In this document: positions 10,280-16,846 of the stretch, one piece after another
Position numbering within the stretch: position 1 is the stretch's first letter
Layout: each line of letters opens with the position of its first letter
From: Escherichia phage FS2B
Length of the DNA: 18,619 bases
Sequence record: MW929183.1
Strand: one strand, 5' to 3'
Position numbers and translations under genes: made by a program
Notes under the pieces: model-generated
What the model was told of the DNA's origin: nothing
The model's database searches: none
Seen by the model: the letters and a program-made list of their open reading frames with translations, nothing else

Positions 10280-10300
10280 TTTATACTCCTTCTACATTAT

Positions 10301-10962: not shown

Positions 10963-11209
10963 TTGTATCTCCCTTGCTGTAATCTTTGTATGTTTCTTTT
11001 CTGTAAGTGCGGAATGCTCTGAAGAAGAGCCAACCAAAACTACTTACATCAATTGTAATATCGAAATCTGTTTCATCATCTAAATCAACAAGACGACCTA
11101 AGCATGTAGCTTCCATCCCTTCTTCAGAGTCACTGTTGATTACGAAAGCGTATGTCTCTGTTCTGAACCGAGGCACCATCTCTGATAAAAAATCTAATAC
11201 TAAATTCAT
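10955..11209 (-). CDS. Hypothetical protein, 84 aa, first gene of the leftward block
   Basis: ATG 11209 with SD GGAGAAG. Acidic protein. Its stop overlaps the start region of the 208-aa gene. Confidence 0.5.
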   Translation of the reverse strand: MNLVLDFLSEMVPRFRTETYAFVINSDSEEGMEATCLGRLVDLDDETDFDITIDVSSFGWLFFRAFRTYRKETYKDYSKGDTNE

Positions 11210-11393
11210 AATTCTTCTCCTCTGAATAAGAGTATAAATGGCACATCATAAGACATACCCGTAAAGGCCACCTCACATTAACACCCGTGAGAATACCTGT
11301 ATTCATTTTCGTAGTCTTCTTCAGAGAAGCTACCGTATTCATCTTCTGTCATACATCCCTCTGATAAAGTTAAGACATAAAGGGGACTTCATG

Positions 11394-11441
11394 TTAAGGC
11401 ACTATCACATTAAGGCTATGTCACGTTAAGGCCTATCCATC
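11394..11441 (+). repeat. Three direct TTAAGGC repeats phased at exactly 16 bp (11394, 11410, 11426); the 12-mer TTAAGGCACTAT recurs at 11865
   Basis: Read directly from sequence: gTTAAGGCactatcacaTTAAGGCtatgtcacgTTAAGGCctatcc. Confidence 0.6.
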
Positions 11442-12088
11442 CATGTGCTGTGTTTAAGCTTTCCACATTTACTACATCTCCAAGTGGACTTATAAAGGGT
11501 GTGAACTCTTTCATCCCCGTAAGCTTTGCGTATCCGATAGTACTCATGATCACATTTGAATTGCTTAATGATTAACTTAATTTTCCACATAAGTTCTCTT
11601 TCAACCTTATATATAAGAGTTTAAAATTCTGATTTGACCGAGTGGGGCTAGCCGCTCGCCGCGCGTTTCCTAAAAAGGGGGAGTCCTCATTTAAAAAAGG
11701 GTTATTGGCAATGCCTTTACCTTCCCTTTCAACGTTCCACCTTTCCCCGTGCCTACTCCCCGTAGTTATTCCCCCGTGTATACTACCCAATACATTACCT
11801 ACCCGTTTATTTAGTTCCCCTTTAAAGAGTGAGAGAAAGGCCAGCACTGTATAATGATTAGATTAAGGCACTATGAATAGGCTAATAATACCCATAAGTA
11901 ATAGCCCACATTCCCCATAGTTACGTTGATAATAGTTTCAATAGTAATGATTATGAGTGCAATAATGATATATGTATTAATTAAGTGGAAAGATAGTAAT
12001 TAACAGTTATTATATTCTTTTATTACTTTCTTTTTTCAGCGTACATGAGCGTAGCGAATGGTCTTTGATGTTTGAGTAATGCTATTAA

Positions 12089-12117
12089 TAGTTAACTAAT
12101 TATTTAAGTGGTATATT
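12089..12117 (+). promoter_or_regulatory. Candidate sigma70 promoter with extended -10 (TGgTATATT), possibly driving the rightward early operon
   Basis: TG at 12109-12110, hexamer TATATT at 12112-12117, weak -35 TAGTTA 17 bp upstream. The -35 is weak and the first gene is ~360 nt downstream. Confidence 0.3.
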
Positions 12118-12481
12118 ATTACCGCACTATCTTGCTATGTTTCCCCGTGGTCTATCCTGCGGTTGTATGCTCCCCGTCCTATATAGATAGTAGAAATATT
12201 TTACCCGTAGGACTTGCTTTCCTTATTAAGAAGTAGTAAATTGTATTCATCGAAGCGAAGCAGTGATGCAAAGTAGCTAGATAGTAGTAAGCTCTCTGAA
12301 GACTAATCGGTCTAAGTAAGTGAGAATGTTTAAAGATAAGGACTCTGCGATTGACTGGTGAAAGCTGGAACACTATCGAGTCAGTGAAGAGGCCAACTGA
12401 GCAATGGCCCTACGTGTGAATCAGAAACACGTGCTATCTTGTGAAACATGAAACCAAATACATATCAACGAGGATTCACAA

Positions 12482-12973
12482 ATGGCTAAATCAATGCAGG
12501 TAGTTAATCTGGCAAGTTATGCACTGGTTGCAGCGATTGGTGTTAGTGCACTGGTCACATCTCTTTCTGATAAGGCTGTTGCTAGTCCTGCTCCTGCAAC
12601 TGATGCGGCTAGTGTCTTCTCTAGTTCCATCAATAAGGGTTGGATGATTTGCAACGGTGCGGATAGTGATGGAAGTACTATTGTATTAAAAATGAAGTTT
12701 AGCAACGTAACTAATGATGGCGTTCTCTTTCAGTCTAAAACACTAGACAATCAGCCTAACAATGATCTAGTTCTCAAGCGCACCGATAGTGACTCGGATA
12801 TGGTTACATTTGGCACTGTACAACGTTACGAAGACGTTAAAGCTGTAACCAATCTAGTGAGTTATGGCCCGATCAATGAGTCGATGATTGCTACAACTGT
12901 TTATAATAACGCTAATAACGCTGTTTATACCGTTCACGTTAGTTTAGCCAACTGTATTAAGGCTAGTAAGTAA
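12482..12973 (+). CDS. Secreted or periplasmic protein, 163 aa, predicted Sec signal peptide, function unknown
   Basis: ATG 12482 with SD GAGGA at 7 nt spacing. N-terminus has a hydrophobic core LASYALVAAIGVSALV followed by A-S-P. Two Cys in the mature part. Confidence 0.7.
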   Translation: MAKSMQVVNLASYALVAAIGVSALVTSLSDKAVASPAPATDAASVFSSSINKGWMICNGADSDGSTIVLKMKFSNVTNDGVLFQSKTLDNQPNNDLVLKRTDSDSDMVTFGTVQRYEDVKAVTNLVSYGPINESMIATTVYNNANNAVYTVHVSLANCIKASK

Positions 12974-12998
12974 ATAACCTATTTTCAGGAGTGTAAAA

Positions 12999-13265
12999 AT
13001 GGCTATCAAAGAAGTTAAGTTATCAAACGGCTTTTCTTGTTTTGTTGGTGGGCAATCTATCGAGTTTAATACACTTGATGGTCAGATAATCTTGCCTGTT
13101 ATCACTTTTTGCAGGATGGAATATCAGCCTCTTAAAGATTGGCTAGCCTTTGCTGATTTCGAAATTACCCGCGATGATTTCAGATCAATCTATATTGACG
13201 GTGATTTGTCGCTGGCTAACCTGCTTAATCATGGTCTGATTGGGGATGATACCAATGGGAAATGA
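12999..13265 (+). CDS. Hypothetical protein, 88 aa
   Basis: ATG 12999 with SD AGGAG at 7 nt spacing. Confidence 0.6.
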   Translation: MAIKEVKLSNGFSCFVGGQSIEFNTLDGQIILPVITFCRMEYQPLKDWLAFADFEITRDDFRSIYIDGDLSLANLLNHGLIGDDTNGK

Positions 13266-13512
13266 AACTATTGCGTTAATTGACACGCATAATTACGGTG
13301 GCGTTACGTTATCTTTTGATGAATCAGTCGACGCTGGTTATTTGTCTTTTCTTTCTAAAGGTGAGATACAAAATATCCGCTTTCCCGTTGTTTGTCTGGT
13401 GCAAGATTATCTAACTGTTGGGAAGTATTTAGCCCAACGCGGGATTCTCCTGTCGCTGGAAGAAGTGGAACAGATTAGCGTAGCATTTTTTGGTGAGGAT
13501 AGCAACCAATGA
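13255..13512 (+). CDS. Hypothetical protein, ~85 aa (alternative starts ATG 13246 or TTG 13240)
   Basis: Track ORF uses TTG 13240. ATG 13255 has GGGGA 8 nt upstream. Overlaps the end of the preceding gene. Start choice is uncertain. Confidence 0.5.
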   Translation: MGNETIALIDTHNYGGVTLSFDESVDAGYLSFLSKGEIQNIRFPVVCLVQDYLTVGKYLAQRGILLSLEEVEQISVAFFGEDSNQ

Positions 13513-13595
13513 TTCATGATTATTTTTGGCGTTGCTTGTTCGTTGTTACAGTGGCGTTATTCGTCGCTGATATGCTTTATTCTTACATTCTCTAA
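13509..13595 (+). CDS. Candidate 28-aa single-pass membrane peptide (MIHDYFWRCLFVVTVALFVADMLYSYIL)
   Basis: ATGA start/stop overlap with the upstream gene suggests translational coupling. Hydrophobic core long enough for one transmembrane helix. Below the ORF-track length cutoff. Confidence 0.35.
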   Translation: MIHDYFWRCLFVVTVALFVADMLYSYIL

Positions 13596-13611
13596 CTAAA
13601 GGTTTATTATC

Positions 13612-13977
13612 ATGGGTGTTATCAAGTTTGTAGTGAAAGTATTTGTAGGCTTCTTTCTGGTTGTTCTCCTGTTAGGTGTCCTGCTGTCATCTATGGGTAG
13701 CGTTAAGGCTGCAACATTTTCCCCTGATACGGTTGACGGTTTACAGTGCACCTATTTGATAGAAAACTATGAAACTGGTAAAAAGTCACCTAAAGTTATT
13801 ATTTTACATGTGAATGATTTCGAACATGTACAATCATACGATAAAACTATTCAACTGGTAAATGAAACCACTGGTAAGCAAATTACGGTGGATCACTTGA
13901 TGCGCTCATCGTTGACGCTCTTTGATGAGTCCATGAATGAAATGGCATCCGGTAACGGTCAATGTGTAAATCCATAG
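13612..13977 (+). CDS. Membrane-anchored or secreted protein, 121 aa
   Basis: ATG 13612 with SD AAAGG upstream. N-terminal hydrophobic segment FVVKVFVGFFLVVLLLGVLL. Two Cys in the C-terminal domain. Confidence 0.65.
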   Translation: MGVIKFVVKVFVGFFLVVLLLGVLLSSMGSVKAATFSPDTVDGLQCTYLIENYETGKKSPKVIILHVNDFEHVQSYDKTIQLVNETTGKQITVDHLMRSSLTLFDESMNEMASGNGQCVNP

Positions 13978-14052
13978 GCTTAATCTTTCTCCTGTATTGT
14001 GCCGTAGTCATGCCTATGGTCATAATTTATCTGATTCTCTAATCCTTCCTGT

Positions 14053-14080
14053 AAGCCTCCTAGTGAGGCTTTTCTCTTTT
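14053..14080 (+). terminator. Rho-independent terminator ending the 12482-13977 operon
   Basis: Perfect 7-bp stem AAGCCUC / GAGGCUU with loop CUAGU, followed by UUCUCUUUU. Confidence 0.7.
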
Positions 14081-14361
14081 ATGAGGTGATTGTATGCCTT
14101 ACTCCCTTTTAGCTCGTTGTGATGCGTTTTAGGCCGCTAAATATCGCTTTACAAGCCATTTTCTATGATGTATCGCGTGCGCCTGCTCTTTTACCTTCCT
14201 ATAGTGAAAAAGTTTAAAATAATTTGCTTTACCCTATTGCAACCTCATCTGATTAGCGTATACTTCATTTCATCGGGTACGATGTAAAACATACAAGGCA
14301 AGAAATTGCCCCGCTCTTTAAAAATCAGGCTAGAAAGTGAAAATATTCTCAAAAAAGAGTA

Positions 14362-14390
14362 TTGACACCGGAAAAAGCCTGATATATAGT
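14362..14390 (+). promoter_or_regulatory. Strong sigma70-type promoter P1: TTGACA, 17 bp spacer, TATAGT, with A-rich upstream element
   Basis: TTGACA at 14362-14367, TATAGT at 14385-14390, spacer exactly 17 bp. A-tract (aaaaaagag) immediately upstream, UP-element-like. Confidence 0.65.
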
Positions 14391-14994
14391 GAGCATAGTC
14401 AGCGATGACTTAAAAAATCCCGCTCTTTAAAAATATGATTTGTCTTACGGGTGGCGGCGACGTCATTACTATAAGGCGCTCAGTTAATCGGTAGAATTGA
14501 TTCCTGATTCATACGTGACGCAGGCGGACAATAAGCAATATCAATAAGCCTTATTTGTTCGATACTTTCAAAAGATTAATGCTTGAAAGCGCACTAGATT
14601 CCCTGAAAGACAAATCAGACTTATCATCTTGCCCTTTCGCATAGATTCACGCGAGATAAGGGAAAGGAATTAAAAGAAGATGATAAAAAGAGTTGCAAAC
14701 GTGGTTAAAGTAGTCCATACTAACCACAAGTTAGCAAAACATCGCTAACTAGTTCCCAAATCAACGTATCGCGGGAAAGGTGGCACATAGTGCAGCGATT
14801 AGTTCAGGTGTAGGCGGCCTGTTAATGAATCAGTAAGCCTTCAATGTGACAGTGATTAGCAGACACTTTAAAAGGCTAAACGCTCTTTAACAATATGAGT
14901 CATAAGTTAAGCCTCACCGCTTAATCTTCAATCAAATAAAGCTGATTGATATATCCTCCCAATAGCGGGAACGACGAAAAAGATTAAAAAGCGG

Positions 14995-15023
14995 TTGACA
15001 GCGAAAACAACATGATTCATAAT
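14995..15023 (+). promoter_or_regulatory. Strong sigma70-type promoter P2: TTGACA, 17 bp spacer, CATAAT; paralogous to P1
   Basis: TTGACA at 14995-15000, CATAAT at 15018-15023. A-rich upstream (aaaaagattaaaaag). Both P1 and P2 are followed by GAGCA just after the -10. Confidence 0.65.
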
Positions 15024-15946
15024 GAGCACTCACTAAGCAAATCATCGCTTCAGTGAAAAGCGTAACAACGGCTAACAGTTGCATAGTGTGAGAAAGCACA
15101 CTGATAGATTTACCGCTCTTTAATAATTTAAACATTCTCCTATATCGGTTGAATATGCTTGATGATAATAACCATCGGAAAGCATACCAGATAAAACGGC
15201 GTAAAACTCCCTAAATTATCAGGGTAAACAGTTTTACATTCCCTTACTGGAAACGTCACCATTGATAAACGGATTCATTGAGTACACGCAAAGACTTGAG
15301 CTAATCGCCCACGGTTAAGGGTAGCGGCGGTCATTGCTAACACGGTGCTACAGTGAAAGAAGTTAATCAGGGTAGGCAAGTCCGACGAATTAACGCTCAA
15401 TTGAGAGCGGCGGGGAGTGGTTAAAAAGTGGCAAATTGCTATTTAACAATAAGGTTTAATGCGAACGTTTACGATGTGAACGGCTTGAGATTCATCATAG
15501 GATGAAAGTACATAGCCGGGTTATGTAGTAAACCTGCTGAAAGATATAAAACGCCGGAATATTAGGCGGTTAGTGACTCTTTCGCAATAGTATCCCGTAG
15601 TGGGCGATGACTAGCGATAGAGAGCTGATACAAAAGGATAAGCGGGAGCGAAAACAAAGTAGACGATATTGCCGACGGTTACAATAACGTAACTAATTAG
15701 AGTCGGACGCACTGCCTTATTGTGATGATTGATCATCGCTATCAGGTCGGCTTCGTTTATAGCGACTAATTAAAGATACCAGATGAAACATCACGGATAA
15801 GGGGGCGGCAAGGTTAACTCCTGATAAGACCGCCCCGCTTACCTATAACTACTTAACAACGAGTGGTTATAGTTAAGTTAATAGTGACTTAAACAAGCTC
15901 ATAGAGAGCGGGGCAATAGCGCCCTTACAATTGAAAGGTGAATATT

Positions 15947-16846
15947 ATGGCTAAAATCTTTACTCTGGTTAACGAATCCGGTTTTAATGCTCTGGCTAAC
16001 AACATTCGCAGTAATAACGCGGCGATCAAACAAGATGTTTCTAACTTCCTGTTAGGTCATTTGCAGCACTTTCGTAGCAACGGTAAGAAGTTAGATGTAT
16101 TGCAGGCGGCGGTTGACTTCCTGTTAACCGAACGTTTCCGCGATATGGATGTTATTGCCACCGCGATTACTTTCTTAACTCCTATCAAGTTTAACACCGA
16201 TGCGGCAAATGGTCGTAAAAAGTGGATTAATCTGGAAGGTGAGGCGAAAGCTAAAGAAGATGCGAAAGAAGCGCAAATTAAGGCCAAAATGGAACAAAAC
16301 CGCGCTCGCTGGTCAAACGCTTTCGAAAACTTTGCATTAGGTCGTGCAATTGAAGTGGATAATCCTAACTTCTACAAAGGTTGCAATGACAACGTGGCGG
16401 CACACCTGCAAATTCCGGCGAAAAACAAGGAAGATTTTAATCAGGATATTTACGCTTTGGTTGAACGCTTGAATGCAATCCGTATTGAAGCCAAATTACT
16501 GGCTGATGAGCGCAACGGCGCAACCAGCGATAACACTATCGCCCTGAGTGAAGAAGTTGGGAAGGTTAAAAAGTCCTTTGATTCACTCATCAAGAAAATC
16601 ACGGCCTCGACGGTAGCGATCTCGGATGATTATCTGATGAACGCATCAAGCAAGGAATTAGAATCACTCGATTCATACGCTGATGAAATGGAAAAGACTG
16701 TTGCAGCTATGCAGGAGAAGTTAGAAAGTCTGCGCGGTCGTATCTCTTCAACGGTTGCTACCCGTAGCGAACAAGCGGCGAAAGCAGAAGAGGAAGAAGT
16801 ATTGCGTAAAGCGGCTGAAATTATGGCGGCACGTCAAGCGGCATAA
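15947..16846 (+). CDS. Hypothetical protein, 299 aa, largely helical with coiled-coil-like C-terminus
   Basis: Track ORF starts at GTG 15938, but ATG 15947 has SD AAGGTG at 6 nt spacing. K/E/A-rich helical sequence. No recognisable catalytic motif. Confidence 0.7.
   Translation: MAKIFTLVNESGFNALANNIRSNNAAIKQDVSNFLLGHLQHFRSNGKKLDVLQAAVDFLLTERFRDMDVIATAITFLTPIKFNTDAANGRKKWINLEGEAKAKEDAKEAQIKAKMEQNRARWSNAFENFALGRAIEVDNPNFYKGCNDNVAAHLQIPAKNKEDFNQDIYALVERLNAIRIEAKLLADERNGATSDNTIALSEEVGKVKKSFDSLIKKITASTVAISDDYLMNASSKELESLDSYADEMEKTVAAMQEKLESLRGRISSTVATRSEQAAKAEEEEVLRKAAEIMAARQAA

Follow-up and report, generated by a model that had tools for sequence, protein, structure and literature searches.

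The 18,619 nucleotides of Escherichia phage FS2B analysed here (sequence record MW929183.1; hereafter the window) carry, from position 12,482 rightwards, a cassette of small genes that forms an accessory transcription unit, the first at the right end of a Kuravirus genome, encoding six products and ending at an intrinsic terminator. Kuraviruses are common E. coli phages of broad host range that are used in therapy studies, and their early genes are uncharacterised. A first-pass annotation, made from the sequence alone, had described positions 12,482–13,977 as an early-operon cassette of five small secreted or membrane proteins. That observation is real and mostly accurate, and each of its open reading frames (ORFs) was found at the same coordinates; as a description of the cassette it is confirmed in part. 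About 100 kuravirus genomes already contain the gene set, annotated as hypothetical proteins, and the operon layout has been published. What is new is the recognition of two conserved micro-ORFs, revised topologies for the 163-amino-acid (aa) and 121-aa products, the removal of two database names, and an unclassified structured leader RNA.

Searches by megablast and blastn with positions 11800–14400 and 12300–14150 identified phage MN03 as the best match of the window, at 93–95% identity, among 84–99 matching phage records, nearly all of them Kuravirus-like podophages (Gordonclarkvirinae) of Escherichia and Shigella. The source of the window is a Kuravirus, that is, a phiEco32-like podophage. 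The cassette corresponds to gp128–gp125 at the extreme right end of the phiEco32 genome (blastn) and to CDS125–121 of phage SU10. When reverse-complemented, phiEco32's right end matches positions 11650–12177 starting with its first base, so the window crosses the junction of the physical genome ends, and the alignment indicates that the sequence was assembled in circularised or concatemeric form. The same alignment sets the start of the terminal repeat region near 11650; with the published repeat length of 193 bp (PMC4281155, PMC9965538), the region spans 11650–11842. The cassette begins some 830 nucleotides (nt) inside the physical right end, and to its left, on the minus strand, lie the terminase and portal genes. 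The segment 11650–12177 is conserved relative to phiEco32 and SU10; similarity is then lost until the membrane segment of the first cassette protein.

Gene content and synteny were compared in 14 GenBank records of relatives, and ratios of non-synonymous to synonymous change (pN/pS) were pooled against 12–16 distinct orthologues per ORF. The five originally listed ORFs, which we refer to as A163, B88, C85, D28 and E121, are all under purifying selection, with pN/pS values of 0.23–0.42, and an excess of third-position substitutions is clear for the four larger ones. Orthology is supported by full-length PHROG matches and by a gene order that is kept at the right end in the 14 records. Within this conserved framework the gene content is variable. 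A163 and D28 occur in all relatives compared and B88 is usual; some phages lack C85 and some lack E121. The place of B88 is taken in EK010 and PAS59 by another small protein, X, and phiEco32 and SU10 hold both genes. In phage XT32, E121 is followed by a gene for an additional protein of 107 aa (L005 3567–3890) that begins with a classical signal peptide and whose sole holin hit is insignificant (E 0.11). Such patchy gene content fits an accessory host-interaction module, of the kind shaped by an arms race, rather than a core function.

A163 (12482–12973, plus strand) is preceded by a GAGGA sequence and is orthologous to the C-terminal 162 aa of phiEco32 gp128, with matches to PHROG 21410 (E 5e-90) and PHROG 36409 (E 2e-98) and a pN/pS of 0.29. 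The first-pass annotation had assigned it a signal peptide, and the expected elements are present: a positive n-region, a hydrophobic segment at residues 7–28 and small residues at −3 and −1 are compatible with the signal peptidase I rule, with an AxA motif placing the predicted cleavage after residue 34, between AVA and SP. However, the h-region is long, at about 21 aa, and few parts of the protein are as well conserved as the hydrophobic segment, in which N9, L10, A11, S12, Y13, G20, S22 and A23 are invariant. Moreover, in phiEco32 (L001 739–1611), SU10 (L003 723–1595) and EK010 (L013 708–1571), where the homologue is 287–290 aa long, the same segment is internal, lying behind a 127-aa domain and a K-rich stretch, KKNKKQPIKPTVASKIMKS. 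A segment that is long, conserved and internal in the 290-aa form favours an uncleaved signal anchor over a disposable signal peptide. A163 is thus probably either anchored in the membrane with type II topology (N-in, C-out) or secreted, and anchoring appears likelier than simple secretion. Beyond the anchor, a beta-rich periplasmic domain of about 125 aa is predicted, with an invariant Cys57/Cys158 pair. The AlphaFold2 model of the protein is of low confidence, with a predicted local distance difference test score (pLDDT) of 43 from a 27-row alignment. A profile search against 1.84 billion representative proteins returned only kuravirus-like proteins; two further hits, to a STAND NTPase and a PKD-repeat protein, were discarded as spurious matches to D/N-rich tails. 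The 127-aa N-terminal domain of the long forms is itself family-less and cytoplasmic, and an internal Met in these forms could also yield the short form.

E121 (13612–13977, plus strand), the orthologue of phiEco32 gp125, matches PHROG 13168 (E 2e-78) and has a pN/pS of 0.23. Its hydrophobic N-terminus is likewise compatible with the signal peptidase I rule, with an AxA motif and predicted cleavage after residue 33, between VKA and A. This N-terminus is interchangeable among relatives: EK010 and PAS59 bear an unrelated classical signal peptide (MKIKLAVCAALFAVSSVSHA, with cleavage ahead of Ala), and Bas89 bears a fusion to D28. Interchangeability favours a cleaved signal, and the protein described earlier as membrane-anchored is probably exported, cleaved after residue 33 and released as a soluble periplasmic domain of about 88 aa. 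The protein contains an invariant Cys46/Cys118 pair, so that A163 and E121 each have one invariant cysteine near either end of the mature domain, as expected for periplasmic disulphides. Neither protein contains an L-x-x-C lipobox; cysteines first appear at residue 57 of A163 and residue 46 of E121. Paralogy between the two proteins was considered and rejected. The structure prediction and Foldseek search that had been proposed for them were carried through to low-confidence models of both. That of E121 (pLDDT 52 from a 24-row alignment) is poor outside the N-terminal helix, and Foldseek found nothing below E 0.1 for it in the PDB. In ECBP2 and MN05 only the signal-peptide part of E121 is left, as an open frame of 31–33 aa (L011 1229–1330; L012 2407–2502). 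The database name 'terminase' for E121 is unsupported, as the protein has 121 aa, no Pfam domain and a signal peptide.

Two micro-peptides complete the set of products with export or membrane signals. D28 (13509–13595, plus strand; MIHDYFWRCLFVVTVALFVADMLYSYIL) had been noted as a 28-aa transmembrane candidate coupled to the preceding gene, and both points hold: its ATG overlaps the TGA of C85 in an ATGA at 13509–13512, with GAGGA 9 nt upstream, and hydropathy reveals a membrane-spanning stretch, which includes a conserved Asp21; Cys9 is also conserved. The frame is open, with the start codon in the same place, in 14 of 14 GenBank relatives; the peptide is 28–32 aa long in 13 of them and fused to E121 in the fourteenth, Bas89, and it is retained even where C85 and/or E121 is missing. 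At 43–48% identity, the peptides of EK010 and PAS59 keep the pattern M-I-H-x-Y-F-x-x-C-L...L-F-x-x-D-x-x-S/Y-Y. The pN/pS is 0.34, compared with 0.58 for the overlapping alternative frame. In Bas89 (L008 2432–2809), a deletion has joined the N-terminal half of D28 to mature E121, replacing the E121 signal peptide, which implies that D28 is translated and inserted in the membrane. These features identify D28 as a real gene and, as judged from its sequence, a single-pass membrane peptide.

The second micro-peptide, F26 (13962–14042, plus strand; MCKSIGLIFLLYCAVVMPMVIIYLIL), was missed in the first-pass annotation. It is a hydrophobic peptide of 26 aa whose frame, in a different register, shares 16 nt with the 3' end of E121 and ends 10 nt ahead of the terminator stem. 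It is found in 12 of the 14 relatives, being undetected in EK010 and PAS59, and is kept where mature E121 has been deleted (PE006, ECBP2 and MN05). Substitutions are distributed 3/3/15 over the codon positions, 16 synonymous to 5 non-synonymous, giving a pN/pS of 0.11. F26 is a probable sixth gene of the cassette, its Shine-Dalgarno sequence being weak. Like D28, it is unannotated in all the GenBank records fetched. It is very improbable that D28 and F26 are not genes and owe their conservation to demands on the DNA or RNA itself, for instance from the nearby terminator or from signals for translational coupling: both are indeed very short and absent from annotations, F26 abuts the terminator behind a weak ribosome-binding site, and several phages also have an open, hydrophobic alternative frame that overlaps D28, but the codon-position bias and low pN/pS of F26, the survival of the D28 pattern in EK010 and PAS59, where no open overlapping alternative frame is listed, and the functional replacement of a signal peptide by the D28 N-terminus all argue for translation.

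The remaining two products are of a different kind. B88 (12999–13265, plus strand; AGGAG upstream) is an 88-aa orthologue of phiEco32 gp127 that matches PHROG 14176 (E 1e-49), has a pN/pS of 0.42 and, by tblastn, has matches only in Escherichia and Shigella kuraviruses. C85 (13255–13512, plus strand), the orthologue of gp126, overlaps the 3' end of B88; it has 85 aa, or 90 aa if TTG 13240 is the start, but its alignment to PHROG 16976 (E 5e-56) begins at ATG 13255, and its pN/pS is likewise 0.42. Both proteins are acidic, with isoelectric points of 4.4 (B88) and 4.2 (C85), and their highest Kyte-Doolittle averages over a 19-residue window are about 1.0. The earlier description of five secreted or membrane proteins was overstated because B88 and C85 have no hydrophobic segment at all; their composition marks them as cytoplasmic proteins, and export or membrane signals are confined to three products of the original five (four out of six with F26 included). 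There is a weak hint of paralogy among B88, C85 and the extra protein X of phiEco32 and SU10 (hhalign P 0.002–0.01, probability 4–14%), and X and B88 have a C-terminal GLSL..LL motif in common. The names 'polymerase' and 'DNA polymerase B region' that databases give to B88 are unsupported for a protein of 88 aa with no Pfam domain. The 'polymerase' label of PHROG 14176 and the 'terminase' label of PHROG 13168 recur in many GenBank records and look like propagated mis-annotations.

The five proteins had been said to lack any recognisable motif, and searches of Pfam, PADLOC, the PDB and PHROG bear this out. Pfam at E values up to 1 gave no family match beyond insignificant hits to YoaL and DUF2556 (E 0.03–0.19); PADLOC-DB, queried with eight proteins of the cassette, versions found in relatives among them, gave no hit at E up to 1; and neither sequence nor profile comparison with the PDB produced a match. 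The PHROG matches are to kuraviral families only, either function-less or misnamed. Word-indexed searches of 5.8 billion proteins with A163, E121 and C85 likewise recovered only relatives with protein lengths and contig sizes that suit kuravirus-like phages, and it is because all homologues are kuraviral that the alignments available for structure prediction are too shallow.

That the cassette is an early operon, as first proposed, is supported by its organisation as a discrete transcription unit and by the publication of the homologous phiEco32 and SU10 genes as early and sigma-70-dependent (PMC4281155, PMC8948821, PMC9965538). In SU10, a single sigma-70 promoter precedes CDS125, a terminator follows CDS121 and three sigma-70 promoters lie in the next spacer, and the layout of phiEco32 is stated to be the same (PMC4281155). 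The upstream SU10 promoter sequence is absent from the window even with up to 3 mismatches allowed. In its place we read a weak candidate sigma-70 promoter at 12214–12242 on the plus strand, with TTGCTT (12214–12219) separated by a 17-nt spacer from TAAATT (12237–12242). It has 7 of 12 consensus matches, under the threshold of our sigma-70 scan, and would start transcription near 12249. Stronger promoters occupy the equivalent place in relatives and in other carriers of the leader described below: TTGACA-17-TATAGT in Bas89, TTGACT-17-TATAGT in Klebsiella phage RCIP0053, and TTGACA or TTGACT promoters in copies from IMG/VR and metagenomes, in each case from a few to about 30 nt ahead of the leader RNA. 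We infer that host sigma-70 RNA polymerase transcribes the cassette from its own weak promoter through a leader of about 195 nt. A promoter of the gp36 type (TAATGTATA) was also considered for the cassette, and there is none nearby on the plus strand. At the unit's opposite end, the intrinsic terminator reported earlier was recovered at 14053–14080 (plus strand), with a 7-bp stem, a 5-nt loop and a U-rich tail. The stem, AAGCCTC/GAGGCTT, occupies 14053–14071 and is followed by TTCTCTTTTA; the hairpin is present in the minimum-free-energy fold of 14040–14090 (total −12.1 kcal/mol), is conserved in 12 of 15 sequences compared, and is annotated in SU10 as well (PMC4281155).

Between the promoter and A163 lies a structured RNA of about 195 nt (12255–12449, plus strand), defined by a covariance model, R1, and by covariation, that occupies nearly the entire 5' untranslated region of A163. 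Its 5' domain consists of three helices, and its 3' domain of four hairpins enclosed by a bipartite long-range helix that pairs 12326–12331 with 12444–12449 and 12333–12338 with 12435–12440. Every helix shows compensatory changes in the alignment. Over 13 sequences, 95.6% of cells are paired and 13 of 30 pairs have changed on both sides, compared with 31–42% paired in slid controls; for the extended 3' domain the corresponding figures are 96.8% and 17 of 32 compensatory pairs, and in the long-range helix all 12 pairs are kept, 8 of them through compensatory changes.

The window scores 199 bits with R1. Among kuraviruses the model also matches MN03, SDYTW1, XT32, Bas89 and PAS59, the last with a shortened version lying immediately upstream of its A163 homologue. 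Outside this group, R1 recognises NC29, a microvirus, in its C-D intergenic region, as well as the Ralstonia phage Reminis, the Klebsiella phage RCIP0053 and some seven contigs from metagenomes. Copies are located at L020 (NC29) 545–748, L021 1494–1684, L022 1494–1682 and L014 663–759. Looser pattern scans of IMG/VR and metagenomes gave mostly chance matches, adding only about seven true copies. After position 12177 the window departs from phiEco32 and SU10, and the replacement segment is common to MN03, SDYTW1, XT18, XT32, XT73 and Bas89 and also to phiX-like NC29 (C-D intergenic region) and the early regions of Reminis and two Klebsiella phages. Rfam 15 contains no match to the leader at E ≤ 0.1 within 11200–16000, and in 12200–12490 gives only snoRNA noise on the opposite strand (E 0.5–8). 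There is no blastn match in E. coli genomes or prophages, and the literature searches made here turned up no description of the element. An identification with the put RNA of HK022 was rejected, since R1, in a one-directional test with this model alone, matched nothing in the complete HK022 genome at E ≤ 10. We conclude that the leader is a well-supported, unclassified structured element present in three unrelated phage groups.

Where a promoter is recognisable, in Bas89 and in the Klebsiella-type and metagenomic T7-like copies, the leader sits just 3' of a sigma-70-type promoter. All six T7-like (Autographiviridae-type) copies (L021, L022, L024, L064, L075 and L132) have a perfect boxA, (Y)GCTCTTTAACAA, within about 15 nt 3' of the leader, in the variant form GCTCTTTAATAA in L075, which hints at a role in transcription elongation. 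The copy in the window lacks a boxA after the leader, as do those of the other kuraviruses and of NC29, so an elongation role is a lead only. The leader would act in cis on its own transcript, with stability, translation or terminator read-through as candidate processes. Because its position after host-type promoters is constant, and because boxA accompanies it in T7-like phages, a possible part in early transcription or in the fate of the transcript is directly testable.

As to the function of the cassette, exclusion, receptor masking and anti-defence, all suggested at the outset, are plausible by analogy only. The reading we tentatively favour, while regarding it as possible rather than probable, is that of an accessory envelope-acting module that limits further phage attack or adsorption, by superinfection exclusion or by interference with the O-antigen or receptor. 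The module would act at the inner membrane and in the periplasm of an already infected cell and render it refractory to further attack or adsorption, either by blocking DNA entry of superinfecting phages or by disturbing assembly of the O-antigen receptor. The micro-peptides and the conserved membrane segment of A163 would bind a conserved host membrane protein, and the disulphide-bonded periplasmic domains would bind a periplasmic target. Kuraviruses are strictly O-antigen-dependent (PMC11990801), and small phage proteins that alter the O-antigen are known in Gnarl1–3 (40–90 aa) and the small iap gene of phage D3, where the change plausibly serves exclusion or counters adsorption to debris (PMC12373910). 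In view of this dependence and these precedents, the proposal takes its most concrete form as interference with DNA entry or with assembly of the O-antigen.

Several observations weigh against it. No homology was found to Imm, Sp, Cor, Llp, SieA, Iap-type or other families; the AlphaFold2 models of A163 and E121 are unusable; and cleavage or anchoring of these two proteins was judged by sequence rules. Two of the products are cytoplasmic and may have an unrelated role. D28 is near-identical across phages whose hosts differ in O-type, which makes a serotype-specific target such as Wzy unlikely and favours a conserved one. Finally, with a promoter that matches the consensus at only 7 of 12 positions, the level and timing of expression in this phage are uncertain. 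The available data do not separate the envelope-acting module from counter-defence, toxin-like shut-off or control of lysis timing. The value of the analysis lies in identifying those products of the first transcription unit that reach the envelope and in providing a small gene set for tests of exclusion and O-antigen change.

A more ambitious proposal, which we rate as unlikely, combines the leader with the membrane components. The leader would represent a new, horizontally moving class of cis-acting RNA, found in Kuravirus, a phiX-like microvirus and Klebsiella and Ralstonia T7-like phages, always located directly behind a promoter of host type; its action could be to reprogramme the RNA polymerase of the host by processive antitermination, in T7-like phages together with boxA, or else to capture an RNA-binding factor of the host. 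D28, F26 and the A163 anchor would together inhibit an envelope machine. If this were true, a membrane-embedded inhibitor of a conserved E. coli envelope machine could cause exclusion or O-antigen loss.

We give a similarly low estimate to membrane counter-defence or takeover, in which the exported proteins and micro-peptides would neutralise a membrane-associated abortive-infection or other defence effector or an envelope-stress trigger, with B88 and C85 inhibiting cytoplasmic defence. The cassette is probably on the first-entering DNA because it is located at the end that carries the early promoters, its gene content is variable, and B88 and C85 resemble many anti-defence proteins in their small size and acidity; their net charge is nevertheless modest, far from that of DNA mimics such as Ocr, and neither PADLOC nor Pfam reveals a relation. 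Gordonclarkvirinae are reported to be highly resistant to the defence systems tested (PMC11990801), but this resistance could equally stem from other loci. Host shut-off by D28 and F26 acting early as type I toxin-like peptides of the Ibs, ShoB or TisB class that would depolarise or perturb the inner membrane, with A163 and E121 modulating them, seems a doubtful explanation. The size, composition and single-pass topology of the two peptides, their retention when larger genes are lost and the conserved Asp inside the D28 membrane segment would suit it; however, there is no relation to known toxins, the Pfam hits to YoaL and DUF2556 being insignificant, and early depolarisation would hurt a phage that needs energy for a full lytic cycle. 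T4 RI delays lysis upon superinfection, and a comparable control of lysis timing by A163 or E121 as a periplasmic antiholin-like sensor, for which the membrane-tethered periplasmic domain and conserved anchor of A163 and the periplasmic partner E121 might be adduced, is highly improbable given that the cassette is early and at the opposite genome end from the late morphogenesis and lysis module (PMC9965538), that E121 is dispensable in several phages, and that there is no similarity to RI or to holins apart from the insignificant hit of the extra XT32 protein.

Beyond the terminator lies a spacer of about 1.9 kb (14100–15930) without any ORF of at least 70 aa. The strongest sigma-70 matches, each 11 of 12, are at 14362 and 14995 in this region, and the promoter at 14362 is nearly identical to a published SU10 promoter sequence. 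The plus strand of the spacer also contains five rrn-type boxA-like sequences (GCTCTTTAAMAA), at 14313, 14422, 14882, 15115 and 15438, the one at 14882 being perfect. Three of the five lie after sigma-70-like promoters (14237, 14362 and 14995), no preceding promoter was found for the other two, and a hairpin at 14293–14314 is immediately 5' of the first. The boxA sequences suggest Nus-factor antitermination of kuravirus early transcription. On the minus strand, gp36-type late promoter motifs, TAATGTATA at 2877–2885 and TAATGTAGA at 10291–10299, lie upstream of the leftward structural genes and agree with the late promoters in Table S2 of the SU10 description.

Among described exclusion systems, a lipoprotein type of exclusion or receptor masking, as in T5 Llp and Cor, was rejected, there being no Cys near the predicted cleavage sites of A163 and E121. 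Searches of Pfam, PHROG and the PDB revealed no similarity to T4 Imm and Sp, P22 SieA or other described exclusion families. Imm and Sp are early membrane or periplasmic superinfection-exclusion proteins of T4. The cassette resembles them by analogy only, in being early, small, divided between the inner membrane and the periplasm and carried by a lytic coliphage; the two systems differ in sequence (no similarity by Pfam at E up to 1) and in the number of components. The iap gene of D3 and Gnarl1–3 offer a second likeness, as very small products that act on a host envelope pathway in phages for which the O-antigen matters (PMC12373910). This comparison is by description only, and D28 differs from these proteins in being conserved across host O-types; neither kuravirus names nor the cassette sequence was found in the supplements of that study (PMC12373910).

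For the leader, the nearest parallels are the rrn- and lambda-type antitermination leaders (boxB-boxA-boxC, nut and HK022 put), in that it starts right behind a sigma-70 promoter heading an early operon and, in the T7-like copies, is followed by boxA. The leader exceeds boxB and put by far in both size and complexity, and an rrn/Nus-type assignment was rejected for the copy in the window, in which no boxA follows the leader.

The closest counterparts are the units of phiEco32 (gp128–gp125) and SU10 (CDS125–121) themselves. Relative to these, gp128 is represented in the window by its short form of 163 aa, in which the cytoplasmic 127-aa domain at the N-terminus is lacking, and gene X (SU10 CDS123) is absent; the strong TTGACA-17-TATAGT promoter is replaced by a weak promoter and the structured leader of about 195 nt. 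In other respects the three units are alike, with orthologous genes in the same order, the same place beside the direct terminal repeat, the same terminator and, beyond it, three strong sigma-70 promoters.

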